The notes beneath the pieces were generated by a model. That model was not told where the DNA came from, did not search any database, and saw only the letters and a program-made list of their open reading frames with translations. A DNA stretch of 64,000 nt from NCBI GenBank assembly GCA_024654575.1, contig JANLHG010000014.1, forward strand, positions 88,745 to 152,744, given 5' to 3'. The DNA comes from Patescibacteria group bacterium. GTDB taxonomy: Bacteria; Patescibacteriota; Minisyncoccia; Phycocordibacterales; PALSA-1337. The translations under genes were made by a program, and so were the position numbers. Positions 2,919 through 22,419 of the stretch are shown in pieces. How positions within the stretch are numbered: position 1 is the stretch's first letter; each line of letters begins with the position of its first letter.

Positions 2919-2941
2919 CCTTGTACCTTGTTCTATTCATT

Positions 2942-2970: not shown

Positions 2971-2996
2971 TAAATAAAAATGCTATACTTTTTCTT

Positions 2997-4712: not shown

Positions 4713-4720
4713 TTAAATCT

Positions 4721-5170: not shown

Positions 5171-6621
5171 AGTCCGATTACTTGTACATTATTTTAGGTG
5201 GTTTTTTTGTGGGGGTTGTTTTTAGAAGTTTTGTTTATTCAAAAATTGCTTTTGCGTTATCGATTATTTTTTTGTCGCTGATATTTCTGATTTGGAGAAA
5301 TAAAAAAGCTTTTTTCATTATTTTTATATTTATTTTTTCGTTTGGAGTTGGAATACTTCGTTATGATATTAAAGATGAAAGTCCGTTAAAAAATATTCTT
5401 GATGATATTGTAGGAAAGAAAATGATAGTAGAGGGGATTGTTTCAACAGACCCAGAAATAAAAGATGACACTTTGCGTTTTGTTATAGCGTCAAAGTCAA
5501 ATATTTTTGTGAGAACCCAATTATATCCGACCGTAAAATACGGTGACCTTATTAGATTGGAAGGTAAAATTATGAAACCGGAAAATTTTGATGGTGGTTC
5601 TGGAAAAATATTTGACTATGTCTCTTATCTTTCAAAAGACGATGTCTATTACACCATGAGTATGCCGAGTGTATCGGTTATTTCTCATAATAATGGAAAT
5701 CCGATTAAAAATGTTCTTTATAAAATAAAAAATAGTTTTTTGACGCAGATTGAGAAGATTATTCCAGCACCATATTCAGCACTTGAAGGAGGGCTTTTGT
5801 TGGGTACTAAACAATCACTTGGTACGAAATTACAAGATGATTTTAGGCGTGCTGGTATTATTCACATTGTGGTACTTTCTGGATATAACATTACTATTAT
5901 CGCTGATTTTATAATGAAAATAATGGTTCCTTTACCGAATGTTTATGGGATAGGTGCCGGAATTATAGGTATCATTCTTTTTGCTATTATGGCTGGAGGT
6001 GAAGCTACTGTAGTGAGAGCGACTATTATGGCTCTTTTTGTCATTTTAGCAAAATCCTCACGGCGAAATTACGATGTGACTCGAGCATTAAGTCTGGCAG
6101 GTTTTCTTATGATATTACATAATCCCAAAATAGTGGTTTATGATTCATCTTTTCAACTCTCTTTTATGGCAACACTAGGATTAATATATGTCGCTCCCAT
6201 TATTGAAACAAAACTTGTCTGGATTACGAAACATTTTAAAATTAGAGAAATTATGACTACTACATTAGCAACGCAATTATTCGTTTTACCAATGTTGCTT
6301 TATAAAATGGGAGAGTTGTCTCTTGTTGGTATTCCAGTCAACCTTTTAATTTTAGGAATTATTCCAATTACCATGCTTTTAGGTTTTATTACTGGCTTAG
6401 TAAGTTTTTTAAGTATTTTTATTGCTTGGATAACTGGGGGTCTGACATATTTTCTTCTGTGGTATCAAATAGGAGTAGTGGAATTTTTCTCTTCACTTCC
6501 ATTCGCGTCAATTAAAATATCATATTTTCCATTTTGGCTAGCGGTTTTGGTTTATGTGGGATATTTAATTATTTACTTGCGTTTTTATAATTCTCCTCAA
6601 TTACATCCCAATTCAAATTAG
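5167..6621 (+). CDS. comEC: ComEC/Rec2 family competence protein, N-terminal membrane part (DUF4131 + competence domain)
   Basis: Multi-pass membrane protein with a ComEC-like organisation. A separate MBL-domain ORF lies downstream. Confidence 0.7.
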   Translation: MKSDYLYIILGGFFVGVVFRSFVYSKIAFALSIIFLSLIFLIWRNKKAFFIIFIFIFSFGVGILRYDIKDESPLKNILDDIVGKKMIVEGIVSTDPEIKDDTLRFVIASKSNIFVRTQLYPTVKYGDLIRLEGKIMKPENFDGGSGKIFDYVSYLSKDDVYYTMSMPSVSVISHNNGNPIKNVLYKIKNSFLTQIEKIIPAPYSALEGGLLLGTKQSLGTKLQDDFRRAGIIHIVVLSGYNITIIADFIMKIMVPLPNVYGIGAGIIGIILFAIMAGGEATVVRATIMALFVILAKSSRRNYDVTRALSLAGFLMILHNPKIVVYDSSFQLSFMATLGLIYVAPIIETKLVWITKHFKIREIMTTTLATQLFVLPMLLYKMGELSLVGIPVNLLILGIIPITMLLGFITGLVSFLSIFIAWITGGLTYFLLWYQIGVVEFFSSLPFASIKISYFPFWLAVLVYVGYLIIYLRFYNSPQLHPNSN

Positions 6622-7120
6622 CGAAAAAGTCCTCAATATATCGTTTTTTTCCAGATGGTTGATAATCATAAATAAAAGCGTGTTCCCACATATCAATACC
6701 TAAAATAAGTTGACAACCATTTAATTGACCAAGATGTTGTTCATCAATCCATGTATTGATTAGTTTTTTTACAGTGGGGTCATAATAAAGCATTGCCCAA
6801 CCAACACCTCTAGTTAGAGCTATTGATTTGAATGTTATAAGCCATTTATCAAATGATTCAAATTGTTCAGTGATAGCTTTTTTTAGAATACTTATGTCAG
6901 AGAGTGCTTTAGGTCCACCCTCTAAACTTTTAAAATAATATTCATGATTTCTCATACCGTTAAATTCAAAACCAATGCGTCTAATATCCTGCTTGCCTTC
7001 AAGGGTGTCATTGATATTTTTTACATAACCAGCATAAAGTTTTAGATGTTCCTCTATGTTTTTCTTTGAAATTCCTTTTAATTCTGGTATATTAAATTTT
7101 TGTTCATCATATTTAAACAT
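6569..7120 (-). CDS. sod: Fe/Mn superoxide dismutase family protein (divergent N-terminus)
   Basis: C-terminal signature GIDMWEHAFIYDYQ...NLNWD matches the Fe/Mn-SOD motif (D-x-WEH-A-Y-Y). The helix-1 HHxKHH motif is degenerate. The gene is antisense, lies between the two comEC ORFs and overlaps both. Confidence 0.7.
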   Translation of the reverse strand: MFKYDEQKFNIPELKGISKKNIEEHLKLYAGYVKNINDTLEGKQDIRRIGFEFNGMRNHEYYFKSLEGGPKALSDISILKKAITEQFESFDKWLITFKSIALTRGVGWAMLYYDPTVKKLINTWIDEQHLGQLNGCQLILGIDMWEHAFIYDYQPSGKKRYIEDFFANLNWDVIEENYKNASK

Positions 7121-7969
7121 AAAATCAAGTATATCATTTTTACTACGCTTTGTTTAGCGAATTTTTTCATATGGTATGGTGTTTATTGGGAAAACAGAGG
7201 AAATACTTTAACTGTCGCTTTTATGGATGTCGGACAAGGTGATTCAATTTTTATTGAAGCACCAAATGGTAATTCCATTATTATTGATGGTGGTCCATCT
7301 AGAGCTATTCTTTCAGAGTTAGGTAAACTTTTACCATTTTATGACCGCTCTATTGATATGTTGATTGTGACAAATCCCGATAAAGACCATTTAGCTGGTT
7401 TTATTGATGTTCTCAAAAATTATAAAGTGGGAGAAGTTCTTGAACCAGGTACCCATTCGGATACCGTAATTTATACAGAACTTGAGAAAACGATTGCTGA
7501 TAAAAAAGTTTTAAAAGAAATTGCTCATCGCGGAATGAAAATAATCCTTGATGAAGAATATGGAATTTATTTAGATATTCTTTTTCCTGATAGAGATGTG
7601 TCACAGTGGACTTCAAATGATGGTTCAATTGTCGCCAAGTTAGTTTATGGAAATACTTCTTATTTGTTAATGGGAGACGCTACGAAAAAAACAGAAAATA
7701 TTGTCATGAGTAATGAAAGCCCGGATGCTTTAAAGAGTGATGTTTTAAAATTAGGGCATCATGGTTCAAAAACGTCTTCTGGTTATGATTTTGTTAAAAT
7801 TGTTTCTCCGTATTATGCCGTGATTTCCGCTGGATTTCATAATAGATATGGACATCCGAATAAAGAAACGATGAATACTCTTACCAAACTCCACATTTCA
7901 TCACTTATTACATTTAAATTAGGAACGATAGTAACAGAATCGGATGGGAGTAGGGTACAGATAAAGTAA
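7100..7969 (+). CDS. ComEC C-terminal metallo-beta-lactamase domain protein (separate ORF with its own TM anchor)
   Basis: VAFMDVGQGDSIFIEAPNGNSIIIDGG...LGHHGS is typical of the ComEC MBL domain. Confidence 0.8.
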   Translation: MFIIFKHKIKYIIFTTLCLANFFIWYGVYWENRGNTLTVAFMDVGQGDSIFIEAPNGNSIIIDGGPSRAILSELGKLLPFYDRSIDMLIVTNPDKDHLAGFIDVLKNYKVGEVLEPGTHSDTVIYTELEKTIADKKVLKEIAHRGMKIILDEEYGIYLDILFPDRDVSQWTSNDGSIVAKLVYGNTSYLLMGDATKKTENIVMSNESPDALKSDVLKLGHHGSKTSSGYDFVKIVSPYYAVISAGFHNRYGHPNKETMNTLTKLHISSLITFKLGTIVTESDGSRVQIK

Positions 7970-8075
7970 GTAAAAATGGTTTGTCTGGGCACGCATAATT
8001 TTCTGATGAAAATTTGCTCTTCTCATGCCGTCGCACTCCGAAAGACCCGACCAAACCATTTTTACTTACTTTTTA
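7966..8075. terminator. Long nested inverted repeat (roughly 25-bp outer stem, with an inner AATTTTC/GAAAATT hairpin) between convergent genes; probable bidirectional terminator or structured element
   Basis: AAGTAAGTAAAAATGGTTTGTCTGGG ... CCCGACCAAACCATTTTTACTTACTT. Confidence 0.45.
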
Positions 8076-8315
8076 GATTAATCCTGCTTTTTTCAAAACT
8101 GCATAAGCGCCGTTTTTATTGATTGTTTTAATGGCTCTGGTAGAAATAGTGAGATTGAGGTATTTTTTTAGTTCAGGGACATAAATTCGCTTTTTTTGTA
8201 GATTAACATATTTACGAACTTTTCCAGTAGGATTAAATTTCGTTGCACGGGTACGGTTTGAGTAACCACCTCCCATTATTGAACTTTTTTTTGTAATTGC
8301 ACAGATTTTTGCCAT
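8073..8315 (-). CDS. rpmB: 50S ribosomal protein L28
   Basis: MAKICAITKKSSIMGGGYSNRTRATKFNP...VPELKK matches the L28 pattern. Confidence 0.85.
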   Translation of the reverse strand: MAKICAITKKSSIMGGGYSNRTRATKFNPTGKVRKYVNLQKKRIYVPELKKYLNLTISTRAIKTINKNGAYAVLKKAGLI

Positions 8316-8976: not shown

Positions 8977-9015
8977 TTGCATTTTTTTGGTGTATATAGT
9001 ATTGTAAATCACGCA

Positions 9016-9429
9016 ATGCCGACAATTAATCAATTAGTTAAAACAAAAAGAATAAGACTTAAAAGAAAGTCAAAATCAATCGCACTTATGCGTAGTTTTA
9101 ATACGATTAAAAATCGTCCTCGTTTTTTTGCATCTCCTTTTAAAAGAGGTGTATGTATCAAGGTCACCACAAAAACTCCTAAGAAGCCAAACTCTGCTAT
9201 TCGAAAAGTGGCTAGAGTGCGTCTTACAAATGGAATGGAAGTGACTGCCTATATCCCAGGTATCGGACATAATCTTCAAGAACACTCAGTGGTTTTGCTT
9301 AGAGGTGGTCGTGTAAAAGATGTTGGACTTCGCTATACTGTAGTTCGTGGTGTGCTTGATTCCACAGGAGTAGAAACGAGACGAAAGGGTCGTAGTCAAT
9401 ACGGTATGAAAAAACCTAAAAAAGCATAA
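9016..9429 (+). CDS. rpsL: 30S ribosomal protein S12
   Basis: [12 protein letters not shown]...[19 protein letters not shown]... Confidence 0.95.
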
Positions 9430-9434
9430 ATTTT

Positions 9435-9905
9435 ATGAGAAGAAAAATAAAAAATAAACATATATTGCAACCAGATATTCAATATGAATCAGTAAAAGTC
9501 GCCAAGTTCATAAACTATATTATGGAAAAAGGTAAAAAAAATACTGCGAGAAGTATTGTTTATGATTGTTTTAATACGATTAAAGAAAAAGCTAAAGTAG
9601 AAAATCCAATGGAAGTTTTTGATACAGCTTTAAAAAATACAGCGCCGATGATGGAGGTACGTTCAAGGAGAGTAGGGGGAGCAAACTATCAAGTACCGCG
9701 AGAAGTGCGACCAGAGAGAAGACAAGCACTTTCTATGAAATGGATAATTGATGCAGCTAGGAGCAAAAAAGGTGCAGAAATGCATAAAAAACTTGCGGAT
9801 GAGATAATTTCCGCATCTAAAAATGAAGGTGAAGCAGTTAAAAAACGAGAAAATACTCACAAAATGGCGGAAGCTAACAAAGCCTTTGCTCACTTCGCGT
9901 GGTAA
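9435..9905 (+). CDS. rpsG: 30S ribosomal protein S7
   Basis: S7 family sequence; standard str-operon order. Confidence 0.95.
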   Translation: MRRKIKNKHILQPDIQYESVKVAKFINYIMEKGKKNTARSIVYDCFNTIKEKAKVENPMEVFDTALKNTAPMMEVRSRRVGGANYQVPREVRPERRQALSMKWIIDAARSKKGAEMHKKLADEIISASKNEGEAVKKRENTHKMAEANKAFAHFAW

Positions 9906-9914
9906 TATAATGAT

Positions 9915-12059
9915 ATGAATAGAGATTACCCATTAGAAAGAGTTAGAAATTTTGGAATTATCGCACATATTGATGCGGGAAAGACGACTACTTCGGAACG
10001 AATTTTGTATTACACTGGTGAATCGCATAAAATTGGTGAAGTTCACGAAGGAAATACCACTACTGACTGGATGGAACAAGAACGAGAGCGAGGGATTACC
10101 ATTACTGCCGCCGCTATTACTTGCTTTTGGAATCCGACTTATATGGGTTTGGATGTTACAGATAAACATCGTTTTAATATTATTGATACTCCAGGACATA
10201 TTGACTTTACAGCTGAAGTAAAACGTTCACTTAGAGTGCTTGACGGTGCTGTTGTTGTTTTTGATGGTGTTGCTGGTGTGGAACCACAAAGTGAGACTAA
10301 TTGGCGTTATGCAGATGATGGAAAAGTTCCGAGAATTTGTTTTATAAATAAATTAGATAGAATGGGAGCTTCATTTGAACGTTCTTATGCTTCAATTCTA
10401 GATCGTTTGACCAAAAATGCAGTTAGAGTGCAGATACCTATAGGTTTGGAAGAAAATTTTAACGGAGTAATAGATCTTCTAAAGATGAAAGCGTATTATT
10501 TTGAAGGGGAGATGGGAAATAAAATTCGTGAAGAAGAAATTCCAGAGGAATATCTTAATGATGCTAAAAAATACCGAGCGGAACTTGTGGAAAAAATTGT
10601 TAGTGAAGATGATAATGCGATGACAATGTTTCTTGAAGGAAAAGAACCGTCAGTGGAAGATTTGAAAAAAATATTAAGAAAAGCCACACTGGAAGTAAAA
10701 TTAATTCCTGTATTTGCTGGTTCGGCACTGAAGAACAAAGGTGTTCAATTGGTGCTAGATGGCGTAGTTGAATATCTTCCTTCTCCTTTAGATATTCCGC
10801 CAGTTGTTGGGGTACATCCAGTAACAGGCGAAGAGGTCATTCGTCATGCTTCTGATTCAGAGCCATTTTCAGCTCTCGCCTTTAAACTTCAGAATGACCC
10901 ATTCGTCGGTCAATTAACTTTCTTTAGAGTTTATTCTGGAACGATTGAAGCGGGAAGCTATATTTATAATGCAACCACTGGAGAAAGAGAACGTCTTGGA
11001 CGAATCGTGCGACTTCAAGCAGATGAAAGAGAAGAAGTAAAAAAGGTTTTTTCTGGAGAAATTGCTGCTGCAGTAGGACTTAAGACAGCTAGAACCTCTA
11101 ACACTTTTTGTGATGAAAATAATCCAATAATTCTTGACCCTATTAAGTTTGTTGAGCCTGTGGTGTCATTAAGAATTGAACCTAAAACAAAAGCTGACCA
11201 AGAAAAAATGGGTATGGCTTTGAAAAAACTTTCTGATGAAGATCCGACTTTTAAAATTTCATCAAACACGGAAACAGGAGAGACTATTATTTCGGGAATG
11301 GGTGAACTTCATCTTGAAATTATGATTGATAGAATGAAGCGAGAGTTTGGAGTGCAGGCAAATGTTGGTGAACCGCAAGTGGCCTATAGAGAAACAATTA
11401 CTTCTAGTGCAGAAGCGGAACATAAATATATCAAACAATCTGGAGGAAAAGGACAATACGGTCACGTTAAACTTACTATTAAGCCGATGGAAAAACTTGA
11501 AGAAGGTAAAAAAATTCCTAAAAATGTTAAACGATATGATCATTTTGAGTTTATCGATTCCATTAAGGGAGGAGTAATTCCAATTGAGTTTATCCCTGCC
11601 GTTGAAAAAGGAGTGAAAGAAGCTATGGAAAGAGGAATTGTGGCTGGATTTAGAATGGAAGACATTTCTTGTGAGCTTACTTTCGGTTCATATCATGATG
11701 TGGATTCTTCCGAAATTGCCTATAAAATTGCTGCCTCACAAGCTTTTCAAGAGGCCGCTAGACGAGCAAAACCGGTTATTTTAGAGCCGATTATGAAACT
11801 TGAAGTGGTTATGCCAGAAAAGTTTATGGGTGATGTTACAGGAAGTCTTTCATCAAAAAGAGGACAAATTGAAGGAATGGAAGATAGAGGAATGTTAAGA
11901 GTCATTCGTTCTAAGGTACCACTTTCGGAAATGTTTGGTTTTACTACCCAACTTCGCTCAATGACCGAAGGTCGTGGTTCTGCTAATATGGAATTCTCAC
12001 ATTATGAAATTGTGCCTCCAAATATAGAAAAAGAGATTGTGGAAAAGCGGAAGAAGTAG
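9915..12059 (+). CDS. fusA: Elongation factor G
   Basis: [10 protein letters not shown] GTPase motifs followed by the EF-G domains. Confidence 0.95.
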
Positions 12060-12078
12060 ATGTGGTATAATTTAATAT

Positions 12079-14133
12079 GTGAAACGCTTTATTGTTTTTA
12101 TTTTTGTTGTAGAAATATTTATTTTATTACCATCTTATGTTCATGCAGATATTTTTTCTAATATTAATTTTTTAAAAACAGCTATAGGTGAAGAACAAAG
12201 TGCTTCTGTGATTGTGAGTGTATCAGATTTTTCCGTAAGAAAATTTATTTTAGATACCAAAAGTAAAAATGTAAAGCTTGAAGGCAATAATAAAGGTATT
12301 TTAACTGAAGTATCAAATACTGGTAATTATATAAAGTCGTGGGATATTGAATATGAAAAGAAAGGGAATAGTCGAGATGTATGTAATCCGCCCGTACTTA
12401 ATCTGAAATTTGATAAAAAAGATAAAAAAAATAACCCCAAACCACTATTTAATGGGACTACGACTCTCTTCGGAAAAAATGTACTTAATTATCAAAAAAT
12501 TCGTCTAATTCCTGATTGTGAAATTTGGGAATCAACTCAATTTATAGCTTCTACTGGTATCAATGTGTTACTTAAGGAATATTTTATTTATTCACTTTTT
12601 CGTTTATTTGAAATACCGACATCTGATGTAATAGCATTTGCAAACATAACTTTTAATTCAAGTGATACTAATTTTGATAAAAATAAGGAATATAAATATT
12701 TAATATTACAACGTGATAACGAACCAGACGATCAAATACCATTTCTATCACAATATGGTTTGAGTGAATTAGTTGAAGCAAGTGATGCTGGTAAAACTTC
12801 AAATTATCAAAAATCTGGCGATCATTTTTATTCTATTAATTATGAAGAAAATGAAATCAAAAGAGATCTTAAACTTGACCCAGAAACCACCATTAAATAT
12901 TTCATTCTTTCTGATTTTGTAAATCTCAACGACCATTTTCTTTTCTGGAATGAAGATTATGGGAAAGATAAAATAACTGGTTTATGGAAAATTGTGCCGT
13001 TTGACTTTGATCTCTCATTTGATTGTGGTCTACCTGTAGTACCAACTGGACTTGTAAAAGAAATAGAGAAACTATCTCCAGAAGAAAAAATTAAATACAA
13101 AAATTTATATTATAAAATTAGTCGAGAAATTTTTGATAATCCAGAATCTCTTGAAAAGATGCTTGCGATAGTAGATCGCTTTCCTTTTGAGGGTAATAAA
13201 GAAACTTTAAAAAATTATGTTAGAGTTGCATTTTATAACTACGCTTTGTATTTTGGATTACCTGAGTTTTCAAATTATATTGGTAAATCACATATTTCAT
13301 TTGTAAACGAAGAATCTTATATAAAATCTGTAGAATCAATTAAAATCATAAGTACTCTTAATAAGTATTGTGATGATTCGTACAAAAAAAGACTTAATGA
13401 TTCATTATCTACTTATTCAAAAATTAAATCTGTTCAATTGAAAAGTGTTGAAACACTTAATGTATTAATGACTGAGGTCTCTCCTTTTTTCTCAATAACT
13501 CTTATACCTAGTAAAGCTTCAATTAATGACAAAGTTACACTTTACTGGAGAGGAGCAGATACTGATATAGACAGCACGATTGAGATATATAGTTTATCAG
13601 AAAAAGTGACATTACAGGAACGTTCAAGTGATGGTTTTTCGCTAATATTTACAGTGCCAGCTTCTCTGAATGGAGGAACTTATAATGTTAAAGTCAACAA
13701 TACTCGTCATGGAGTTAGTGGAACTAAACAACTCATAATAAACCCCCCTATCAAAGTCGCACCAATTCTTTTTACTAAGATACTTACTGATGCTCAAATC
13801 TTAAGTGTTAAAGGATTACTTCAAGCTTTTGGTGCCAATCAAGATGTGGTAAATAACGTGCAAAATGTATTAAGTGGAAAGGTGGCCCCAACTCCAACCC
13901 CCATCTATACTCCAGTTTACACTCCGTCTCCAACTTACACACCAATTTATACTCCTTCTCCTACTTATACCCCTACAGTAACAGCTACTCCTACATCAAC
14001 TTCTACACCAACTCCAACAATTACTTCTTCCCCCACTCCTTCTCCAAGTCCATCTTCTTCTCCTACATCTAGAATATATTTTGGTTCTTTTGTAGGGAAT
14101 GTGCTTGATGGGATTAAGGGATTGTTTAGGTAG
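12079..14133 (+). CDS. Secreted protein with a possible CotH-like core and a C-terminal Pro/Thr-rich linker plus conserved 21-aa tail
   Basis: Signal/TM N-terminus. The segment FLFWNEDYGKDKITGLWKIVPFDFDLSFD is reminiscent of the CotH WD-x-D region (tentative). The C-terminal module is shared with the 16604..20752 protein. Confidence 0.55.
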   Translation: MKRFIVFIFVVEIFILLPSYVHADIFSNINFLKTAIGEEQSASVIVSVSDFSVRKFILDTKSKNVKLEGNNKGILTEVSNTGNYIKSWDIEYEKKGNSRDVCNPPVLNLKFDKKDKKNNPKPLFNGTTTLFGKNVLNYQKIRLIPDCEIWESTQFIASTGINVLLKEYFIYSLFRLFEIPTSDVIAFANITFNSSDTNFDKNKEYKYLILQRDNEPDDQIPFLSQYGLSELVEASDAGKTSNYQKSGDHFYSINYEENEIKRDLKLDPETTIKYFILSDFVNLNDHFLFWNEDYGKDKITGLWKIVPFDFDLSFDCGLPVVPTGLVKEIEKLSPEEKIKYKNLYYKISREIFDNPESLEKMLAIVDRFPFEGNKETLKNYVRVAFYNYALYFGLPEFSNYIGKSHISFVNEESYIKSVESIKIISTLNKYCDDSYKKRLNDSLSTYSKIKSVQLKSVETLNVLMTEVSPFFSITLIPSKASINDKVTLYWRGADTDIDSTIEIYSLSEKVTLQERSSDGFSLIFTVPASLNGGTYNVKVNNTRHGVSGTKQLIINPPIKVAPILFTKILTDAQILSVKGLLQAFGANQDVVNNVQNVLSGKVAPTPTPIYTPVYTPSPTYTPIYTPSPTYTPTVTATPTSTSTPTPTITSSPTPSPSPSSSPTSRIYFGSFVGNVLDGIKGLFR
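13885..14067 (+). repeat. Imperfect short tandem coding repeats encoding the Pro/Thr-rich linker ([11 protein letters not shown] / TPT)
   Basis: Repeated CCAAC/TACAC/TCCTAC units. The protein is 684 aa; the PT-rich stretch runs from about residue 603 and ends before the 21-aa tail. Confidence 0.7.
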
Positions 14134-14215: not shown

Positions 14216-14449
14216 ATGAAACGAATTAATATTACATTACCAAAAGATACTCTTGAGTTACTTGATAGTGTTGCTTTGAAGGGAGATAGGAGTCGTTTAG
14301 TTCATACTGCTGTACAATATTACATCAGACAAAAAAGTAAAAATGCAATCAAGGCACTTCTTCAGGAAGCTGGAAAGCAAAATTACTCGCGTGATATTGA
14401 TATAGCTCGCGATTGGTTTGCAATCGACGAACACATATGGAAAAAATAA
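14216..14449 (+). CDS. Ribbon-helix-helix (CopG/MazE-like) antitoxin
   Basis: A 77-aa ORF (MKRINITLPKDTLELLDSVA...) sits immediately upstream of the MazF-like gene and overlaps it by 13 nt. Confidence 0.6.
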   Translation: MKRINITLPKDTLELLDSVALKGDRSRLVHTAVQYYIRQKSKNAIKALLQEAGKQNYSRDIDIARDWFAIDEHIWKK

Positions 14450-14802
14450 TAGAATTACCTAGACGGGGCGATATATATCTTGTTAATTTTGATCCAACAA
14501 TAGGTAGAGAAATTAAAAAAACACGACCAGCTGTAATTATTCAAAATAATATTTCTAACGAATATAGTTCTGTAGTAATTGTTGCGGCCGTTACTTCTTA
14601 TCGTGCAAATTATAAAATTTATCCGACAGAAGTTATTGTGCCTTGTAAGGAAAGTGGCTTAAATCATGATTCACTTGTTTTATTGAACCAGATTCGAACA
14701 ATAGATAAACAACGTTTATTGCTTAAAGTTGGTAAAGTAAATTCAGAAATTTTATTAAAAATAGATAAAGCACTTGAGATAAGTTTGGGAATTGTGTTAT
14801 AA
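14437..14802 (+). CDS. mazF: MazF/PemK family endoribonuclease toxin
   Basis: RGDIYLVNFDPTIGREIKKTRPAVIIQNN...SVVIVAAVTS is the PemK/MazF signature. Confidence 0.8.
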   Translation: MEKIIELPRRGDIYLVNFDPTIGREIKKTRPAVIIQNNISNEYSSVVIVAAVTSYRANYKIYPTEVIVPCKESGLNHDSLVLLNQIRTIDKQRLLLKVGKVNSEILLKIDKALEISLGIVL

Positions 14803-14834: not shown

Positions 14835-15758
14835 ATGAAATATAACAAAGGTTTTTTAGGAATAGGTATGATAATCGCAATCGTTGCCATTTTGGCTGTT
14901 GGTGGGGGTGTCGTTTATTACACAACAAAAACTCCAGCTCCTTCTTTAAACACAGAAGAAGATAATTATCAAACACAAGCAAATCAGAATAATAACTCTT
15001 CATCTGCTTCTGTCGGTACTCCAACGATAACTGTTGTTAGTCCAGATGGAGGAGAAATGTGGCAAGAAGGCAAGACGTATCAGATAACATGGTCGGCAAG
15101 AAATATCTCTGGAAACCAAAGTATTAAGTTGGTTGATAGAAATAACTTAGTTATAAGAACTATTAATTCCAATATAAATACAGTAAATGATGGTTCAAAT
15201 TCCTATTCTTACAATTGGATAATACCTCAAGAGTTTGTATCAGAAGCTTCTCCATTAAAATTTAAGATTCTTATTTCTTCTTCGGACAATACAGTCTCAG
15301 ACTATAGTAATAATCAATTTACAATTTCTGCTCCAGACAATATCGCAAATTGGAAAACATATACTGATAGTAAATCGAGTTATTCAATTGATTATCCAAC
15401 AGGAACCCAAATAAATGCGAACGCTACTACCGTTTACTTTTCGCCTATTTCTACAAAAAGCGAATTAAGTATAGATGTCGTCATGTCCTCCTCCGCGAGT
15501 TGTTTTAATACCGCCTCTGGCGCAGACCCGACTTATGCAACTATCAATGGTATAAATTTTACTGTATGGAATAAGAGCAAAGAATATAGCACAGGATCTA
15601 ATACTTGGGCTACAGCTAAAGAATACTGTGTTGTGCATGGTGGAAGTATATATAAAATAATTTCCAAACTTCCTTACAAAGCTGGCACTACTCCTTCGGA
15701 TGTAGACAAAGATGTAATCTTGAATAAGATGATTGCAAGTTTCAAATTCACGAAATAG
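14835..15758 (+). CDS. Hypothetical membrane-anchored surface protein
   Basis: N-terminal TM segment followed by a low-complexity N/S/T-rich region. Confidence 0.45.
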   Translation: MKYNKGFLGIGMIIAIVAILAVGGGVVYYTTKTPAPSLNTEEDNYQTQANQNNNSSSASVGTPTITVVSPDGGEMWQEGKTYQITWSARNISGNQSIKLVDRNNLVIRTINSNINTVNDGSNSYSYNWIIPQEFVSEASPLKFKILISSSDNTVSDYSNNQFTISAPDNIANWKTYTDSKSSYSIDYPTGTQINANATTVYFSPISTKSELSIDVVMSSSASCFNTASGADPTYATINGINFTVWNKSKEYSTGSNTWATAKEYCVVHGGSIYKIISKLPYKAGTTPSDVDKDVILNKMIASFKFTK

Positions 15759-15761
15759 TTA

Positions 15762-16562
15762 CTAGTTTTTTGGAAAGTATTCAATAAGCTCATTTGAATT
15801 ATAAAAATTTTTTGCAAGAGTACCGAAACTATATGGAACATTTTTTATTTCTATAATCGCTCCGCCAGATTGAGGATTGGCGTTTGGAATAGAATGTTTA
15901 AAACCGATATTGTAGAGCGTACTTATGATATCTATACGGTCTGTGATAGGAAAACCAGCTTTTTCCCATTGAGTAAGAATCTGTTTAATATATAAGGCGG
16001 TATAAAGATAAGAATAATATCTATCATCTTCTTTTGTAATTCTTGTAAATCGTTCTTTATCTTTATCTTTCGTTTCAAAATCAAGAATATTTTCATAAGA
16101 TAGTCCAAGATAATATATAGAAGAAGTATCTTTCAAATGTTTCTCAATAAGTTTTGCAGTTTCTTCTTTAATTCCCATCACTCCCCAAGAAAATTGATTT
16201 TGATTGCCTAAGAGTTTTAATGGATAAAAGATTTTCTTGAATAACTCTCTATTACTGTGGTAAAGTCGCAATTGTTCCACTACCAGTTGCGCTACAATAA
16301 GTCGTGATGGTATTCCCGTTATTTCTCCCGCTCTTTTTATGACTTCTTCATCTTTAATAATCGCTGTTTTTAATGTTTCCCATTCTTCGCCAATATTCCA
16401 AGTTTTTTCCGTTTGAATAAAATTACTTTGTTGATTATCAATAATTCCTTTCGTATTTGTCAAACCAAATTTTACTGCAAAGTATCCTACTACCAATACA
16501 AAACCAATAAAAGCGAAAATGTATACGATAATTTTTCCAATTGATTTAAATGGGGATAACAT
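15762..16562 (-). CDS. Hypothetical membrane-anchored protein
   Basis: N-terminal TM segment; no confident family assignment. Confidence 0.45.
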   Translation of the reverse strand: MLSPFKSIGKIIVYIFAFIGFVLVVGYFAVKFGLTNTKGIIDNQQSNFIQTEKTWNIGEEWETLKTAIIKDEEVIKRAGEITGIPSRLIVAQLVVEQLRLYHSNRELFKKIFYPLKLLGNQNQFSWGVMGIKEETAKLIEKHLKDTSSIYYLGLSYENILDFETKDKDKERFTRITKEDDRYYSYLYTALYIKQILTQWEKAGFPITDRIDIISTLYNIGFKHSIPNANPQSGGAIIEIKNVPYSFGTLAKNFYNSNELIEYFPKN

Positions 16563-16603: not shown

Positions 16604-19600
16604 ATGAGAAAGGTATTTTTCTTCGGGTTTATAGTTATATTTATTCTTGGTTCTTATTCACATACGATATATGCTCAATCAACACCTACTCCGATACCTG
16701 CTACGGTATCTAATTTTATTATAACTTCGGCTAGTACGATTGATAATGATATAGATAAACAAACTCAAGCAATTATTATAGCTAATGATCAATTGAGTCG
16801 ATTAAAAAATGATTCTAGAGCTATTCCTATAGCTAGAGAAAGACAGATACTTATGAAAAATTTGGCTAGGAAAAATGCACAACGATTTTTGAGTGTCACT
16901 CTTAGTAGTAAAATTCGAGCACAGCTAGTTCCAGAAGCACAACAATATATTGAAAAAAGAGATACGATTACAGGCACACTTGAGGTGATGCACATTGACG
17001 ATTTCAAAAATCATGATAACTCTAAATTTGAATATACATTAAATGCAATTATTAAAAAATATAGCATATTAAGCCCAACTCCGATAACGCCCATAAATGG
17101 TGGTAAGGTAAAAGTGGATGGATATGCACTTGATGATCTTATGGTGCTAGCAAATGGAGACCCGTCTATGGTTATTCTTGCTGGACAAGGGTCAAAGGAA
17201 GCTCTCGGTAATCAGCGTGTTTTAGCACTCATCACTGAAATGAAAGGAGAAACTAGTCCAATTACTGTAGCAGATGCTGAAAAGGCACTTTTTGATGAGA
17301 CAAGTCCTTTTCAGAAGTTTTACAGAGAGCAATCTTATGGTAAGGCGTGGTTTAGTGGAAAAGCATATAAAATCAAACTTGACCGTGCTGGTGGTGAAGG
17401 ATGTACCAGTGGTATTAATATTTTTGATGAAGATGTTATTGCAGCTATTAAAGCTCAAAATATAAATCTAGATAATTTTGATCGTATTTTATTTATTCCA
17501 CCAGTTGGGTATTGTTCTGGTGTCGGAAAAGGTGTGATTGAGATTGAAGGGAAAAAGTATATGTTGTCCACATCTTGGGTTAGTTTTAATGACTTTAAAA
17601 GCCACTTAGATAATAATACTTTCTCTATTACTTTGGCACATGAGCTTGGTCACGCGCTCGGAGTTATGCATGCTAATTTTCTTTTATGTGACAAACATGA
17701 TCCTTGTGTCCATCAAGAATATGGAAATTATTTTGATGTGATGGGAAGCGGTGTCGGTGATTTTAATGCACTTTATAAAGAACAACTAAACTGGCTCGTT
17801 CCAGATGATTTTGTAGTTATCACAAAAGATGGAAATTACAATATAAAACCACTTGAAAATAAAAATGGTATAAGAGCCGCTAAAGTTATCAATCCTTTTA
17901 TCGGCCCTCTTTCGATTATGTATTTGGAAGCAAGAGCAAATGTTAATAGTCGTTATAAAGGGGATCTTGTATCTGGTCAGGAAAATTCATTACTACTTAA
18001 TATTCCACAACGACCTAAGGAATTGAAACAGACAGATGTAGAGTTAATAGATATGACTCCAGGAATTCCAGGTTGGAATCTTCCAATTGGTGGATATTTT
18101 TTTGATAAAGAAAATATTGCACTTGGTCCTAATGCATTGTCTTATACTCCAGATTCATCTGGTGTCACTATAGGCTCTGTCAAACAAGAGACGGGTGAAG
18201 TTGGTTTTCATATTGCAATAAGTAAACTAATATGCAATCCAAAGTTTCCTCAAATACATTCTGATGATTATGTACCAAAGATTACCCAAGGTTCGTTAAT
18301 TAGTATAGGTGTTAGGTTTACTAATAATGACCCAATTTGTTATCAACCTTCTGATTTCACATTTGAATTAAAAAATCTTCCTGCGGGGTTTGTTATTGAT
18401 ACTGATCGTAGTGATTTAAATAATAATGCTAAAATAATAGCTCCACGCGAACAATCATATTTATCGACTGCTGTTAATGTTCAACCATCTGTATTACCTG
18501 GTTTTTATAATATCAATTATGAAATAAAAAATACAAGGTCAGGTTTAGTTGCTCAAGGATCTCAAGAAATTCAAGTGATTGCTAAACCTGTAATACTTTC
18601 TATTGACCCTCAATTAGTCGCGATAGGGGGAGATATTAAAATTATAGGTAAAAATTTTAATCAGAAAAACAAAGTTGTCTTCCAAACACTTATAGACGGT
18701 GTGTGGTTGAATGGTATTTTTGATGGAGTAGTTGCCACTGATGGAACTAATAAAGATGAACAAGTTCTTGCTCTTAAAATGCCTACAACTCTTTGTAAAT
18801 GGGGTGATGGAGGTTCTTGTGAAGGGAATTTCCCAGCATTGCCTGGAACGTATTGGGTATATGTACAAACTGACTTTACTTCAACTGAACAATTTAACTT
18901 TTCAGTATTTGATCAAAAAGATATATCTTCACCAAAAATCAATATTCTCTCTCCCACTTCAGATGAAGTCATTGAAAAAGGAAAATTGTATGTTATTAAA
19001 TACAAAACGAAAGGGGTCTCAAATGTTAAAATCGATTTAATGGACTATAAAGGAATAAAAGTGATTAGAAATATTGAACCGAGTGTGTCTGGTGATTTTA
19101 CCAATTATTATTGGACCGTTCCTAATGATTTAGATATTGAGCGGAATAACTTGTTTACTATTCGTATTTCAGATGTCAATAACTCAAAAGTACATAGTGA
19201 TAGTGGTAAGTTTATGATTATAGAACAGGATGATCCAGAACTAGAAGTAACAAGTAATGTTCTTTCTGTAGAATATGATTCTAATAGAAAAGAAGTGTCA
19301 GTGGTTTCAAAAATTAAAGTCAAAATAACTGCCTCAAAAGATATTGACTTAATCATTCCAAAGCAATGGGCGTTTTCAGTCGGAGCTACAAATACTAATT
19401 ATCAATGGGCTGGGGAAAGTCAGACGACTTATACTTCTACCGCTTCAAATTATGGTTCAAACTCATATATAATACCAAAAGGCAAAAGTGCTGATTTTGA
19501 ATTGACTACACAATTTAATCCGAAAATAATGTTTCCAGGGTCATATAAAGCGTTTATGAATGGTTTTACTTACGGTGCTAATTATAATGGTTATAAATCC

Positions 19601-20752
19601 ACACCTGATAACTACTCAAATGTACTAACTATTATTGGAGAAACATCACCATATATTACCTCCGTTACTGACCCTGCATATATTAATGTACCGATTACAC
19701 TGACGGGTGAACGATTCGGTTCTGCTATTGTCGGAATTGTTTTAAATGATAAACAGATTTCTTTAAAACCTCAACACAATGGTAATTTTGACTCTGTTAC
19801 ATTTACACCTCAAAAGTATGAAGTAGATTCAGGGTTTGCAAAGATGCAATTGTTTAATGAAATTGGTGCAAGTAATATTTATTATTTTGAATTACTACCA
19901 GCCAAAACAGTATTTGGAAACTTAAAAGAACAGTTTGCTAATGTGTTACAGGCGATAGAAGAAATTTTGAAATTTTTCTCTCCAACGGAAGTGCACGCGG
20001 AAAGCAATTGTCTCATTCTTCATGAGACAATGAGATTTCGTTCTGATGACGAACAGACAAAAGGGGAAGTATCAAAACTTCAACAATTTTTGAAATCAAA
20101 AGGTTATTTTACAGAAAAAGTTTCTGGTTTTTATGGTAAGGCGACGATGCAAGCTATTATTGCTTTTCAGAGAGCAAATAATATAGCTCCTTCAAGTCAA
20201 AACCCATGGCTTTCTGCTGTAGTTGGTCCAAAAACCCAACAAAAAATCGCTTCACTTACTTGCAATGCTTCAAGTCCTATTACTTCTCCTTCTTCTACTC
20301 CAATGATTATCTCTAACCCTAATAAACTTCTTACAAATGCCCAAGTCTCAAGCATTCTCGGATTACTCAAATCATTCAACGCTAATCAGAGTGTTATAGA
20401 CAATGTCCAAAAATCTTTAGGAGGCACACCTACAGCAACCCCCATCTATACTCCAGTCTACACTCCATCTCCAACTTATACTCCTACAGTAACTCCTACT
20501 CCTACTTATACTCCCACCTCGACATCTTCTCCATCTCCAACATATTCTCCCACCCCGACTGTGACCACTACTCCTTCTCCTACTTATACCCCTACAGTAA
20601 CAGCTACTCCTACATCAACTTCTACACCAACCCCCACAATTACCTCATCTCCATCTCCGAGCCCGAGTCCATCTTCTTCTCCCACATCTAGGATATATTT
20701 TGGTTCTTTTGTAGGAAATGTGATTGATGGGATTAAGGGATTGTTTAGGTAG
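16604..20752 (+). CDS. Giant secreted zinc-metalloprotease-like protein (metzincin HEXXHXXGXXH motif) with beta-rich repeats, a PG_binding_1-like domain, a PT-rich linker and the conserved 21-aa C-terminal tail
   Basis: Signal peptide; [11 protein letters not shown] zinc motif; [41 protein letters not shown] resembles a peptidoglycan-binding domain. The C-terminus ...[21 protein letters not shown] is identical, apart from V/L and I/L differences, to the tail of the 12079..14133 protein. Confidence 0.7.
20429..20686 (+). repeat. Pro/Thr-rich coding tandem repeats (second copy of the PT linker)
   Basis: [25 protein letters not shown]...[20 protein letters not shown], with DNA segments near-identical to 13885..14067. 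Confidence 0.7.
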
Positions 20753-20797: not shown

Positions 20798-22417
20798 ATG
20801 AATATAAGGGTTAAGATAAAAAAACATAAGGTTTTATCAAGTTTTGCTTTGATAATTATTTTACTTATCGGATATTATTTCTATGGTAAGATAAATAATT
20901 CTTCAGTCCAAGTTTCTTATGTTTTAGGTAGTGTTGAAAGAGGAGTGATTACAACTTCTGTTTCTGCTAGTGGACAGGTTTCCACTCTAAAACAAGTAGA
21001 TATCAAACCTAAGGCTTCTGGGGATATTGTTTCTGTACCTGTGATAAATGGTCAGGAAGTCAAAGCAGGGACTCTTATTGCTGTGATTGATACAAGAGAT
21101 GCAGAAATAGCTCTTGAAAGTGCTAGAATTGCATTAGCAAAATTAACACAACCAGCGGATGCCGTTTCTCTTATTCAAGCTCAAAATGCTCTTGAAGATG
21201 CAATTCAGTCAAATCAAAAAAGTATAGATGATGGATTTAGTGCTGTTTCTAATGCTTTTTTGGATATGCCCGATGTAGTTATTGGTCTTTCTGATATATT
21301 TTATAAAAATGGAAGTTATCTTAATGAACAAAATGTACTGTATTTAGGAGACACAACTAGAGAATATAGAAATAAAGCCATAATAAGTTTAGGTGTTGCA
21401 AGGAATAAATATGATGCAACCTTGATTCAATACAAAACATTGAGTAGAACAAGCGCTACTTCAAGTATTGAATCGCTTATCGTCAACACTTACGATACAG
21501 TAAAAAGTTTGTCAGATGCTATCAAAGATGCTAAAAACACGATTGACTATGTAATTTCTCAAAAATCAGATCGTGGTCAGAGTTTAGCTGTAAGTGCTAT
21601 AGCTGATGTAAATAATTGGACTGGTAAAATTAATAATAATTTAGTTAATTTATTATCGATTAAAAATAATATCATAAATTTTGCTAGTTCTTTGCGTGAG
21701 AAACAACAATCGCTTATAAAACTAGAAAGTGGACCAGATGCGCTTGATATTCAATCCCAACAATTATCTTTGAAACAAAAAGAATATGCTTATCAAGATT
21801 ACTTTGTTCGTGCACCGTTTGATGGAATTATCGCCAAACTTAATTTAAAGAAAGGTGATTCTGCATCATCTGGTACAGCTATAGCAACATTAATTACTAG
21901 TCAAAAAATCGCTAATATATCACTTAACGAATTAGATGTAGCAAAAATTAAATTAGGTAATAAATCTATACTTTCATTTGATGCGGTGCAAGATCTATCA
22001 ATCACTGGAGAAGTTACTGAAATAGACACCATAGGTACGGTTACTCAAGGTGTCGTAACATATTCTGTGCAGATTACTTTTGACACACAAGATGAAAGAA
22101 TAAAATCAGGAATGAGTGTTTCGGCTTCTATAATAAGTGATTCAAGACAAGATGTATTAAAGGTGCCTAATTCTGCTATTAAAACATCCAGAGGTATTTC
22201 TTCTGTTCAAATGTTGATTAACAATGTCCCAAGTAATATTCCTGTCACAGTTGGAATCTCTAATGATACTGAATCGGAAATAATATCAGGTATAAACGAA
22301 GGAGATTCTATTATCATACGGACAGTTAATTCTTCCTCTCAAACAACTGCAGTATCAGCGACCAGAACACCAAGCTTATTTAATATAGGAGGAGGGACTA
22401 CTCGTAGAGCACAATAA
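20798..22417 (+). CDS. HlyD/MacA-family periplasmic adaptor (membrane fusion protein)
   Basis: N-terminal TM; MFP-type beta-barrel/lipoyl motifs (VSASGQVSTLKQVDIKPKASGDIVSVPVINGQEVKAGTLIAVID...) with a coiled-coil hairpin. Confidence 0.75.
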   Translation: MNIRVKIKKHKVLSSFALIIILLIGYYFYGKINNSSVQVSYVLGSVERGVITTSVSASGQVSTLKQVDIKPKASGDIVSVPVINGQEVKAGTLIAVIDTRDAEIALESARIALAKLTQPADAVSLIQAQNALEDAIQSNQKSIDDGFSAVSNAFLDMPDVVIGLSDIFYKNGSYLNEQNVLYLGDTTREYRNKAIISLGVARNKYDATLIQYKTLSRTSATSSIESLIVNTYDTVKSLSDAIKDAKNTIDYVISQKSDRGQSLAVSAIADVNNWTGKINNNLVNLLSIKNNIINFASSLREKQQSLIKLESGPDALDIQSQQLSLKQKEYAYQDYFVRAPFDGIIAKLNLKKGDSASSGTAIATLITSQKIANISLNELDVAKIKLGNKSILSFDAVQDLSITGEVTEIDTIGTVTQGVVTYSVQITFDTQDERIKSGMSVSASIISDSRQDVLKVPNSAIKTSRGISSVQMLINNVPSNIPVTVGISNDTESEIISGINEGDSIIIRTVNSSSQTTAVSATRTPSLFNIGGGTTRRAQ

Positions 22418-22419
22418 AA

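Follow-up and report, generated by a model that had tools for sequence, protein, structure and literature searches.

In E. coli, the C-terminal tail of PBP5 is well known to tether the protein to the outer face of the inner membrane (PMC2909392). LPXTG/sortase proteins combine a signal peptide, passenger domains, a Pro/Thr-rich extended spacer and a short C-terminal element common to unrelated surface proteins, and the exosortase, archaeosortase and rhombosortase tags are again short and C-terminal, occur on diverse secreted proteins of one genome and are often specific to a lineage; the PEP-CTERM, PGF-CTERM and GlyGly-CTERM tags are tripartite (a signature motif, a transmembrane (TM) helix and an Arg-rich cluster) and go together with a polytopic processing enzyme. 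The interaction of Patescibacteria with their hosts depends on surface-exposed proteins. These bacteria (CPR) are ultrasmall, and all cultivated members are episymbionts on other microbes (PMC11623550). In the literature that we searched there was nothing relevant on CPR surface anchors or on CotH in Patescibacteria, and no description of how CPR retain large secreted enzymes on the cell.

Here we analysed a stretch of 64,000 nucleotides from a patescibacterial metagenome-assembled genome (MAG), called the window below, in which two large secreted proteins, ORF A and ORF B, share a C-terminal end that resembles these systems in several respects. It differs from LPXTG/sortase proteins in having no LPXTG-like motif, no hydrophobic TM segment of 15-20 residues and no basic cluster, with no sortase found in the window, and it differs from the tripartite tags in that neither their three parts nor a polytopic processing enzyme was found here. 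The best explanation of the data as a whole, which we put at a probability of roughly 0.5, is a recombining three-part display cassette and not a single sorting signal, the tail of which would be a non-covalent surface tether.

Architecture of the two secreted proteins

ORF A (MCR4334475.1; positions 12079..14133 of the window, 684 aa) matches a database entry exactly and is named CotH kinase family protein at NCBI; like ORF B, and like all the parts of both proteins described below, it lies on the plus strand. Its order is a signal peptide, a CotH-like kinase, one Ig-like sandwich and then the C-terminal cassette. The Pfam CotH model scores 20.7 bits on it, just under the cutoff of 23.8. The AF2 model, built from a 12-sequence alignment, has as its top PDB match the B. 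cereus CotH kinase 5jd9 (E 5e-9, probability 1.0), and with 5jd9 and 5jda as its best PDB folds (TM-score 0.50, normalised to the target) it shows the CotH atypical kinase fold.

ORF B (MCR4334480.1; 16604..20752, 1382 aa), also an exact database entry, is a secreted protein in which a Zn-metalloprotease is followed by an Ig-like stalk, an internal relic tail, a PG_binding_1 domain and then the C-terminal cassette, as indicated by its domain matches. The region of the HExxH zinc-protease motif (aa 337-357; 17612..17674) gives weak matches to Peptidase_M11, Reprolysin, M10, M43 and the NCBIfam M6 model, and the PG_binding_1 domain (aa 1154-1196; 20063..20191) matches Pfam PF01471 with E 3.7e-9, above the curated cutoff. 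The relic tail (aa 1107-1123; 19922..19972) aligns with the true C-termini of two homologues, P0216 and P0217. ORF B is a fusion of two ancestral genes that has kept this internal relic: in the related contig L014 the orthologue of B ends where the relic tail lies in B, and a separate gene after it, with a signal peptide of its own, contains the PG_binding_1 region.

Both proteins begin with a predicted signal peptide of typical Sec type, the strongest hydrophobic window lying at residues 1-23. In A it covers aa 1-23 (12079..12147; Kyte-Doolittle mean of the top window 2.27), with an AxA-like site read from the sequence between ...SYVHA and D, and in B aa 1-24 (16604..16675), with a cleavage site read between ...HTIYA and Q.

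The shared end and its recent gene conversion

Both ORFs proved to be as the first-pass annotation had drawn them, and both carry the same C-terminal end, the tail and then the stop codon. The sole significant BLASTP similarity between them joins residues 567-684 of A to residues 1241-1382 of B (65% identity, E 1e-14), B having 26 additional residues in its Pro/Thr region; all other segments give E > 0.3, and the two have in common only the C-terminal 118 aa of A and 142 aa of B. The earlier statement that most of their length is unrelated is true of A compared directly with B, but not for the wider family, as the Ig-like stalk of B (aa 688-1122; 18665..19969) is homologous to the C-terminal halves of other A-family proteins (38% identity to residues 407-875 of P0217, BLASTP E 1e-82).

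In A, the shared end consists of a 32-aa domain that we call 'SFGA' (LTDAQILSVKGLLQAFGANQDVVNNVQNVLSG; aa 569-600; 13783..13878; local HMM match E 1.4e-14), a low-complexity Pro/Thr-rich linker whose imperfect repeats have periods of 12 and 18 nt (aa 603-663; 13885..14067) and the tail with its stop codon (aa 664-684; 14068..14133), recognised by its AF2 helix, its amphipathicity and its fit to the family motif given below. The same parts in B are a 32-aa 'SFGA' domain (aa 1243-1274; 20330..20425; local HMM match E 3.8e-16), a Pro/Thr-rich linker 26 aa longer than that of A (aa 1275-1361; 20426..20686) and the tail with its stop codon (aa 1362-1382; 20687..20752), which was found by BLASTP, DNA alignment, pattern search and motif HMM. 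Neither the helical segment nor the tail was found in any other ORF of the window.

The two tails are identical at 20 of 21 residues and both end in (L/I)DGIKGLFR before the stop codon. Counted back from the stop codon without gaps, DNA identity between A and B is 95.5% over 66 nt, 89.3% over 150 nt, in agreement with the figure of about 90% given earlier for the last 150 nt, and 84.5% over 213 nt; directly downstream of the stop codon it is 34-40%. For the helical segment, identity is 56% at the protein level and 63% at the DNA level. Synonymous divergence (pS) falls from 0.78 in the domain through 0.35 in the stalk to 0.14 in the tail, and because of this fall along the module we interpret the near-identity of the ends as recent 3' gene conversion ending at the stop codon, while the pN/pS of 0.14-0.19 in linker and tail points to purifying selection on both. 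The first-pass annotation had deduced recent duplication or gene conversion together with selection on the tail from the DNA identity; the gene conversion is supported by the pS gradient, but the identity of about 90% is no indication of selection on the tail, since that gradient is the signature of gene conversion.

The 'SFGA' domain as a separate unit

The shared end had been regarded as a single module of about 115 aa, a view that has to be abandoned, as the end has three separable parts (domain, Pro/Thr stalk and 20-aa tail) and the domain occurs independently. The 'SFGA' domain is a two-helix unit of about 32 aa with the consensus LTxAQIxxILxLLxSFGAxxxxIxNVxxxLxG. Using the helix segment alone as query, we collected at least 430 protein cluster representatives at E <= 1e-3. 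The domain is found in secreted proteins, and the few matches with a source name all come from Patescibacteria (CPR). The first copy begins no more than 80 residues from the N-terminus, just after the signal peptide, in 125 of the 149 top matches; two to five copies, often in tandem, are present in 39 proteins, and PG_binding_1 often follows. Because it lies mostly just after the N-terminal signal peptide, the domain is not part of a C-terminal sorting signal, and because it is usually N-terminal and adjoins PG_binding_1, it is probably an envelope- or wall-associated module. Pfam and NCBIfam models gave no match to it in these searches. Two further homologue searches carry no weight: the whole 118-aa module as query returned only Pro/Thr low-complexity proteins (81-203 aa) and missed A and B themselves, and a 44-aa doubled tail returned no candidate, the method seeming ill-suited to short domains within longer proteins.

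A family of C-terminal tails

The core of the tail follows the motif small-[NS]-[VI]-h-[DEQ]-[GA]-[IF]-x-[SG]-[LI]-F-[RK], after which come 0-6 residues and the stop codon. A further protein encoded in this MAG, P0074 (MCR4334817.1, NUV47_03790), has the cassette too, the domain and the stalk being followed by a tail (...ASIFNSFTNFWKWIFR) that has diverged but still conforms to the motif; its passenger is unrelated to A or B, and its 'SFGA' domain is 89% identical to that of B. The proposal that the shared end is portable on unrelated secreted passengers is thus confirmed by a third cassette in the same genome. Related C-terminal tails are also present in 10 of the 14 homologues of A (CotH-like, 25-63% identity); the C-termini of P0211, P0210 and P0215 read ...TFGKMVGSVMEAFKSLFR, ...HYIFFMTNIFEGIESLFK and ...IGASIADAFLSLFR, respectively, and the orthologue P0210 has the tail without the 'SFGA' domain and the long stalk. 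At least five secreted proteins of other families, encoded near CotH-like homologues in related contigs, end in the tail motif as well (L011 at 5171-6319 and 6362-8266, L013 at 908-2329 and 2481-3587, L014 at 5826-7016), and the last of these, which is outside the seeds of the motif HMM, scores 11.8 bits with it at the C-terminus. Seeds for the motif alignment were chosen by hand, and the HMM is too short for sensitivity, missing P0214, P0220 and P0065; the relic tail of B is one of its seeds and owes its 11.7 bits partly to that construction.

The tail is therefore not confined to the two ends in which it was noticed, as many other CPR secreted proteins end in it, and the similarity is not limited to the low-complexity Pro/Thr region, beyond which it reaches well. 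The elements before it vary, from CARDB and Ig-like domains to Pro/Thr/Ser linkers of about 10 to 87 aa, and because they differ the tail can be considered independent of the preceding domain. Except for the fusion relic in B, every member has it within 0-6 residues of its C-terminus, and in most of them basic residues flank the segment. An N-terminal hydrophobic segment with an AxA-like site is present in A, B and all tail-bearing relatives examined. Much of the recurrence, being within the homologous CotH-like family, is vertical inheritance and not independent tagging. Pfam and NCBIfam models gave no match to the tail in these searches, and the comparisons place it in an uncatalogued C-terminal tail family of this CPR lineage.

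A strict back-translated pattern of the tail (S[FI]VGN.[LIM]..[VI]..[LI]FR-stop), which is too strict for the real family, has two matches in the window; in collections that do not include the source MAG it has three in 185,579 GTDB species genomes, four in 241 million metagenome records and none in viral contigs, and all seven of these outside matches are due to chance, in ORFs of 3-105 codons. The exact tail sequence would accordingly be essentially unique to the source genome, and only the looser 12-residue motif more widespread.

Two borderline cases deserve mention. A 307-aa secreted protein encoded between A and B (...NKMIASFKFTK) was considered as a tail bearer and rejected, as its end does not fit the motif. 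At the C-terminus of P0065 the in-register score is 30, the best of 88,126 15-mers, and MAFFT puts the motif further upstream; this case is suggestive only.

Sorting signals and a possible surface tether

Known sorting signals were searched for in both proteins. The last 60 residues of A and of B contain no LPXTG-type pentapeptide, neither protein matches an NCBIfam or Pfam sorting-signal model at E <= 1, and there is no PEP-CTERM, GlyGly-CTERM or PGF-CTERM motif, TM segment or NCBIfam match. The arrangement of a TM segment with a positively charged tail is likewise absent, N, D and K lying within the segment and a single Arg at its end. The end is not a T9SS C-terminal domain, being a disordered linker with a 20-aa helix and no Pfam or NCBIfam match in a member of the Patescibacteria, nor an outer-membrane-protein beta-signal, as Phe is penultimate, Arg or Lys is last, a helix is predicted and there is no OMP fold; to our knowledge, CPR cells have no outer membrane. 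Among the 45 ORFs of the window none has a Pfam match to a sortase, and no sortase-like, polytopic sorting or other processing enzyme was found within it. The first-pass annotation was thus right that the tail is not of the LPXTG, PEP-CTERM or GlyGly-CTERM type. Its further suggestion of an undescribed tag stands as far as the tail is portable, recurring and uncatalogued, but no processing enzyme was found in the window, and nothing points to cleavage or covalent attachment.

AF2 predicts a helix at residues 662-683 of A with low-to-moderate pLDDT (45-58), after a disordered linker with a pLDDT of about 27 and no secondary structure. On the Eisenberg scale the tail of A has a hydrophobicity H of 0.31 and a moment muH of 0.57, the latter above 98% of shuffles, and the PBP5 anchor GNFFGKIIDYIKLMFHHW (sequence from PMC3189734) gives H 0.33 and muH 0.49 on the same scale. 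The Wimley-White interfacial energy of the tail is -3.1 kcal/mol; that of some members is near zero or positive (P0211 +1.1, the internal copy in B +3.7).

By analogy with PBP5, the tail probably holds the secreted proteins at the cell surface non-covalently. In the display cassette, the two-helix 'SFGA' domain of about 32 aa would be the first part, a disordered Pro/Thr stalk of 60-87 aa the second, spanning the wall and presenting the enzyme outside it, and an Arg-flanked amphipathic alpha-helix of 20 aa at the C-terminus the third. After Sec export, the tail would be retained non-covalently on the outer face of the cytoplasmic membrane, where it may lie in the membrane plane like the 18-aa PBP5 anchor or dock on a conserved envelope partner. 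The cassette would have replaced the native C-terminal region in A and been added after gene fusion in B, and it would be the same unit that is seen on the third protein of this genome.

Alternative explanations

A dedicated partner might instead recognise the tail as a tag, be it a receptor on the surface or machinery for processing or attachment that is peculiar to this CPR lineage, a reading that we consider unlikely. It would make the tail part of a new sorting or docking system, as the first-pass annotation suggested. The motif positions N/S, D/E/Q, G/A and S/G are held at fixed spacing, a conservation beyond generic amphipathicity, and the conserved acidic and small residues, unneeded for lipid binding, would be explained no less well by a specific protein-protein contact. 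Different tagged proteins are encoded close together in each genome: L011 has three such genes in a row, L013 also has three, L014 has two or three, and the window has A and B. One conserved neighbour of genes with the tail, to be regarded as no more than a candidate partner, is a 266-aa protein with an N-terminal TM helix, encoded at 15762..16562 on the minus strand and divergent from B, the orthologues of which (73% and 47% identity) divergently adjoin tail-bearing genes in L014 and L013. However, the gene is absent from the examined parts of L008-L012, the protein has no Pfam or PDB sequence match by profile search and no protease, transpeptidase or sortase signature, and none of the cleavage motifs, TM segments or basic clusters of known sorting systems is present in the tail. 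A more specific form of this reading, in which the motif would be the address tag of an undescribed Patescibacteria-specific surface-attachment or sorting system, read by a dedicated envelope partner (the 266-aa protein being one candidate) and serving to display kinases, proteases and other host-interaction enzymes on the episymbiont, is slightly more doubtful. By eye, the 266-aa protein has motifs like those of lytic transglycosylases, which is a lead only.

A purely structural or oligomerising role of the tail helix, for example as a short coiled coil or a stalk cap, with no part in localisation, seems to us improbable. The hydrophobic face of the tail covers only about 120 degrees, with i, i+3/4, i+7 spacing, and its charged residues stand at salt-bridge distances; the internal copy in B and the tail of P0217 contain much E, K and Q, like a soluble helix, and B tolerates the motif internally, all of which would suit such a role. 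On the other hand, a stable coiled coil needs more than 12-20 residues, the tail is set apart from folded domains by disordered linkers of 10-87 aa, unrelated domains precede it and, the relic in B apart, its place is always within the last few residues of the protein.

It is very unlikely that the tail is a C-terminal TM stop-transfer anchor of type I topology with a single cytoplasmic Arg. A mostly apolar stretch of 18 residues does lie between two Arg, and the P0215 version, IVLIIGASIADAFLSLF, is almost hydrophobic enough (H 0.60). The Kyte-Doolittle mean of the tail is nevertheless 1.04, and 0.75-0.79 for the last 19-residue window, whereas TM segments usually reach about 1.6; the Wimley-White octanol energy, at +0.85, is positive, N, D and K are inside the segment, and P0216 has only about 12 tail residues, ASIMDAIKSIFKSK.

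The last explanation, that the shared end is a functionless by-product of recent duplication or gene conversion between neighbouring genes, would account for the pS gradient, a mark of recent homogenisation of the 3' ends, and for the strict pattern giving only chance matches in short ORFs elsewhere, but it is highly improbable and appears largely refuted by the wider tail family, with related tails in other genomes ending both homologues of as little as 25% identity and non-homologous secreted proteins, low pN/pS in linker and tail, and a third paralogous cassette in the same genome whose diverged tail keeps the motif.

Significance and comparison with known systems

Read as a display cassette, the locus would represent a modular solution in which an enzyme, an Ig-like or Pro/Thr stalk and a short conserved C-terminal helix are combined, and which is reused on kinases, proteases and binding proteins while recombination shuffles the parts between genes. 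The tail motif and the 'SFGA' domain, both without a Pfam or NCBIfam match here, could help to predict the surface proteome from metagenomes, and if the tail needs a specific partner it would belong to a new protein-sorting system.

Dockerin and cohesin offer a parallel in that a portable, non-catalytic module attaches diverse secreted enzymes to a surface scaffold; the dockerin, however, is a Ca-binding duplicated fold of about 60 aa, compared with a 20-aa helix here, and no cohesin-like partner is known in the present case. Three CotH homologues without the tail carry dockerins, and as these are located mid-protein and not at the position of the tail, we dropped the idea of a tail replaced by a dockerin as positional evidence. 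MinD and FtsA likewise have membrane-targeting sequences at the C-terminus, amphipathic helices of 8-15 aa with many F, L and K/R residues, and the MinD C-terminus ...KGFLKRLFGG is comparable with the ...GIKGLFR of the tail, but MinD and FtsA are cytoplasmic and bind the inner leaflet, whereas the tail proteins are exported.

A close likeness is to the anchors of low-molecular-weight PBPs (E. coli PBP5/DacA, PBP6 and DacD), which are, as here, Sec-exported enzymes whose last 18-20 residues or so are amphipathic and non-TM, and the N-terminal part of the tail is similar too (xFFGK.. in PBP5, xYFGS.. in A, xTFGK.. in P0211). The tail is not homologous in sequence to that of PBP5, and the present family has its own conserved motif ending in F-[RK], many unrelated passengers, often a long Pro/Thr stalk before the tail, and a CPR bacterium as its bearer, with membrane binding predicted where that of PBP5 is established. 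In its export, its C-terminal helix outside the folded domain and its non-TM amphipathicity, as read from the sequences and the structural model, the tail would fall within the class of PBP5-type anchors, a functional class and not one of homology.

The shared ends of A and B

The kinase-like protein A and the protease-like protein B are both encoded on the forward strand of a 183,331-bp contig of a Patescibacteria MAG (locus tags NUV47_), and both begin with a Sec-type signal peptide. A (12079..14133, 684 aa) is a CotH-like kinase with a weak Pfam match, the AF2 model of which has B. cereus CotH kinase 5jd9 as its best match (E 5e-9), and it carries a single Ig-like sandwich (aa 472-554) C-terminal to the kinase. 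B (16604..20752, 1382 aa) contains a metalloprotease region with an HExxH motif, which matches M11, M6 and reprolysin weakly, and a PG_binding_1 domain (aa 1154-1196); over residues 688-1122 it shares homology with CotH-family members, in their C-terminal half (P0217, a homologue of A, 38% identity, E 1e-82).

The sole significant similarity between the two by BLASTP joins A567-684 to B1241-1382 (65% identity, E 1e-14); an insertion makes the Pro/Thr region of B 26 aa longer, and both proteins terminate in (L/I)DGIKGLFR and a stop codon. Going back from the stop, the two DNA sequences are 95.5% identical over 66 nt, 89.3% over 150 nt and 84.5% over 213 nt, but only 34-40% immediately past it. 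The first-pass annotation had described these ORFs, their matching ends and their DNA identity accurately. It had also read the identity as implying both recent duplication or gene conversion and selection on the tail. Because synonymous divergence drops along the module, from 0.78 in the domain (the helical segment) through 0.35 for the linker to 0.14 for the tail, the two 3' ends must have been homogenised recently by gene conversion, along a tract that terminates at the stop codon; the high identity itself reflects conversion and is no mark of selection at the DNA level.

A family of related C-terminal tails

The back-translated exact-tail pattern S[FI]VGN.[LIM]..[VI]..[LI]FR-stop matched A and B alone in the window, where neither domain nor tail was found in other ORFs, and nothing real was recovered from viral contigs, 185,579 GTDB species genomes and 241 million metagenome records; seven outside matches, all in ORFs of 3-105 codons, were rejected. 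Judged by sequence, a looser family clearly exists beyond these two ends, so that the confinement to A and B which would have counted against the first-pass annotation does not hold. The domain search retrieved P0074 (MCR4334817.1, NUV47_03790), encoded on a different contig of the same MAG. Its passenger resembles neither A nor B, and it carries a domain 89% identical to that of B, a Pro/Thr stalk and, as its tail, ...TASIFNSFTNFWKWIFR. Among 14 A homologues (25-63% identity), 10 likewise end in related tails, namely P0210 (...RHYIFFMTNIFEGIESLFK), P0211 (...RATFGKMVGSVMEAFKSLFR), P0215 (...RNIVLIIGASIADAFLSLFR), P0214 (...SPFFTDIRLLLGSLFRR), P0216 (...AASIMDAIKSIFKSK), P0217 (...FANILQAIEGIFSTKNVKQ) and P0220-P0223; of the other four, one is cut off at a contig end and the three tail-less ones contain dockerins. 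The contigs around these homologues encode additional tail-bearing secreted proteins of other families: a Kre9_KNH Ig-like protein (L011 5171-6319, ...SLLGAIIEAFRR), a TIG and CARDB protein (L011 6362-8266, ...LIANILDAFRVVFDR), a PG_binding_1 protein (L013 908-2329, ...VASVFDSVITLASLVM), a further secreted protein (L013 2481-3587, ...GSFVSLLTGSVIDSMKLLFGIFK) and a B-like protein (L014 5826-7016, ...EASVMDAIKNLFKSK).

Alignment of about 25 tails, partly by hand, gave the motif small-[NS]-[VI]-h-[DEQ]-[GA]-[IF]-x-[SG]-[LI]-F-[RK], then 0-6 residues and the stop, usually with a basic residue a few positions upstream. Every match of an HMM built from hand-aligned seeds lay 0-6 residues from the C-terminus, and the B-like protein of L014, which was not a seed, was recovered. 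Since the preceding elements differ (a CARDB or Ig-like domain, or a Pro/Thr/Ser linker about 10 to 87 aa long), the tail behaves as an autonomous terminal element, and it is a real, uncatalogued one common to unrelated secreted CPR proteins.

The linker-tail junction (A aa 657-665; also P0210, P0074 and two other matched proteins, P0134 and P0180) is conserved across passengers, reading SSSP[TIV]S(E)R or SPISER ahead of a hydrophobic helix, and may serve as a hinge or as a site of glycosylation or processing. Between A and B (14835-15758) lies the gene of a 307-aa secreted Kre9_KNH/Ig-like protein, which ends ...DVILNKMIASFKFTK and was rejected as a tail-bearer because this does not fit the tail motif; its end resembles that of P0135 (...KIFSTFKFNL) and may be a separate conserved C-terminal element.

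The domain and the linker

The 115-aa module, initially taken as a single unit, is a composite of three separate parts: domain, linker and tail. A profile of the domain copies in A (13783-13878) and B (20330-20425), searched against 1.84 billion cluster representatives, matched at least 430 of them at E <= 1e-3; P0062-P0209 are among the proteins that carry the domain. Among the 149 best matches, the first copy starts within 80 residues of the N-terminus, directly past the signal peptide, in 125; 39 proteins have two to five copies, often in tandem, and 15 have one at the extreme C-terminus. The copies follow the consensus LTxAQIxxILxLLxSFGAxxxxIxNVxxxLxG, which is matched by no Pfam or NCBIfam model, and the few matches with a named source are all CPR (Patescibacteria, Candidatus Taylorbacteria). 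As it is mostly N-terminal, often multicopy and very often followed next by PG_binding_1, it is an independent small extracellular domain outside any C-terminal signal, and may serve in wall or envelope binding or in oligomerisation. The Pro/Thr linker consists of imperfect repeats of 12 and 18 nt and is predicted to be disordered (AF2 pLDDT about 27).

Origin of the cassette and of B

In P0210, the closest orthologue of A (63% identity in a multi-sequence alignment, 60% by BLASTP), CARDB, SSSPISER and the tail occupy the place of domain, stalk, SSSPTSR and tail in A. P0210 thus has the tail without domain or long stalk, and therefore the tail is ancestral in A and the other two were acquired. 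B contains an internal tail relic (19922-19972, aa 1107-1123) exactly at the point where P0216 and P0217 end. On the related contig L014, the B orthologue ends at this same point, and the gene after it starts with a separate signal peptide and encodes a PG_binding_1 region that continues B. Because these genes are separate there, B is a gene fusion in which the old tail is now internal and a new cassette terminal; the signal peptide of the downstream gene has degenerated within it (19973-20062). Within the corresponding L014 region (3675-8035) the B orthologue itself looks split, into 3675-5738 and 5826-7016; a frameshift or assembly error may be the cause.

Neighbouring genes

On five CPR contigs (window 8977-14133; L008, L010, L011 and L013) the CotH-like surface-protein gene lies directly 3' of fusA (EF-G) or within the S10 ribosomal-protein cluster, an unusual position for a large secreted-protein gene, conserved inside core translation operons. 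A small ribbon-helix-helix-like antitoxin ORF overlapping a PemK/MazF-like toxin ORF (14240-14802) separates A from the following surface-protein gene as an insertion, both recognised by eye, and a PemK_toxin gene is also near the CotH-like gene in L009. A YknX/MacA-like adaptor, an ABC ATPase and a MacB-type permease are encoded just downstream of B (20798-24292), and in L010 (5051-8579) the same trio lies 3' of the A orthologue, at a distance of about 1.3 kb; this is synteny conserved between close relatives. In three genomes, the gene of a conserved 259-266-aa protein with a single N-terminal TM helix is divergent from tail-bearing genes (window 15762-16562, L013 3633-4412 and L014 253-1047, all minus strand). 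The protein matches no Pfam or PDB sequence; lytic-transglycosylase-like motifs seen by eye (VEQ ... SWGVMGIK..TA ... YNIGF) offer a lead only.

Proposed function of the tail

The tail has no LPXTG, PEP, GlyGly or PGF motif and no basic cluster, no NCBIfam or Pfam sorting-signal model matches it, and no sortase or exosortase-like gene was found among the 45 window ORFs. To the extent testable here, the known kinds of sorting signal are ruled out, which agrees with the first view of the tail as unlike LPXTG, PEP-CTERM and GlyGly-CTERM; of the proposed undescribed attachment or sorting tag, the C-terminal element stands and a processed covalent signal is unsupported.

In the AF2 model of A the tail is helical at 662-683 (pLDDT 45-58). 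It is amphipathic, with an interfacial energy of -3.1 kcal/mol and a helical moment that is greatest at 100-110 degrees and larger than in 98% of shuffles. The favoured reading is a non-covalent surface tether, to which we give a probability of about 0.5: after Sec export the terminal helix would retain the protein at the membrane or envelope, with the stalk crossing the wall and the enzyme displayed. The position-by-position conservation of polar and small residues would allow for a dedicated protein partner that reads the tail, a rather unlikely reading; a candidate partner is the 266-aa membrane protein (15762..16562, minus strand), conserved but unannotated, orthologues of which adjoin tail-bearing genes divergently in L013 and L014. 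A specific partner, if found, would make the tail substantially more interesting. The other readings are less likely: a purely structural or oligomerising helix is doubtful, and a TM anchor is improbable, the tail having no TM segment (Kyte-Doolittle mean 0.75-1.04, positive Wimley-White octanol energy). That the shared end is a functionless by-product of conversion is very improbable; pN/pS along the module is 0.14-0.33.

As for the non-covalent tether, exported E. coli PBP5 is held at the outer face of the cytoplasmic membrane by an 18-residue helix (PMC2909392). The hydrophobicity and moment of the tail (Eisenberg H/muH 0.31/0.57) are close to those of this terminal helix (GNFFGKIIDYIKLMFHHW, PMC3189734; 0.33/0.49 on the same scale), and the tail would belong with the known C-terminal amphipathic tethers, as a novel variant.
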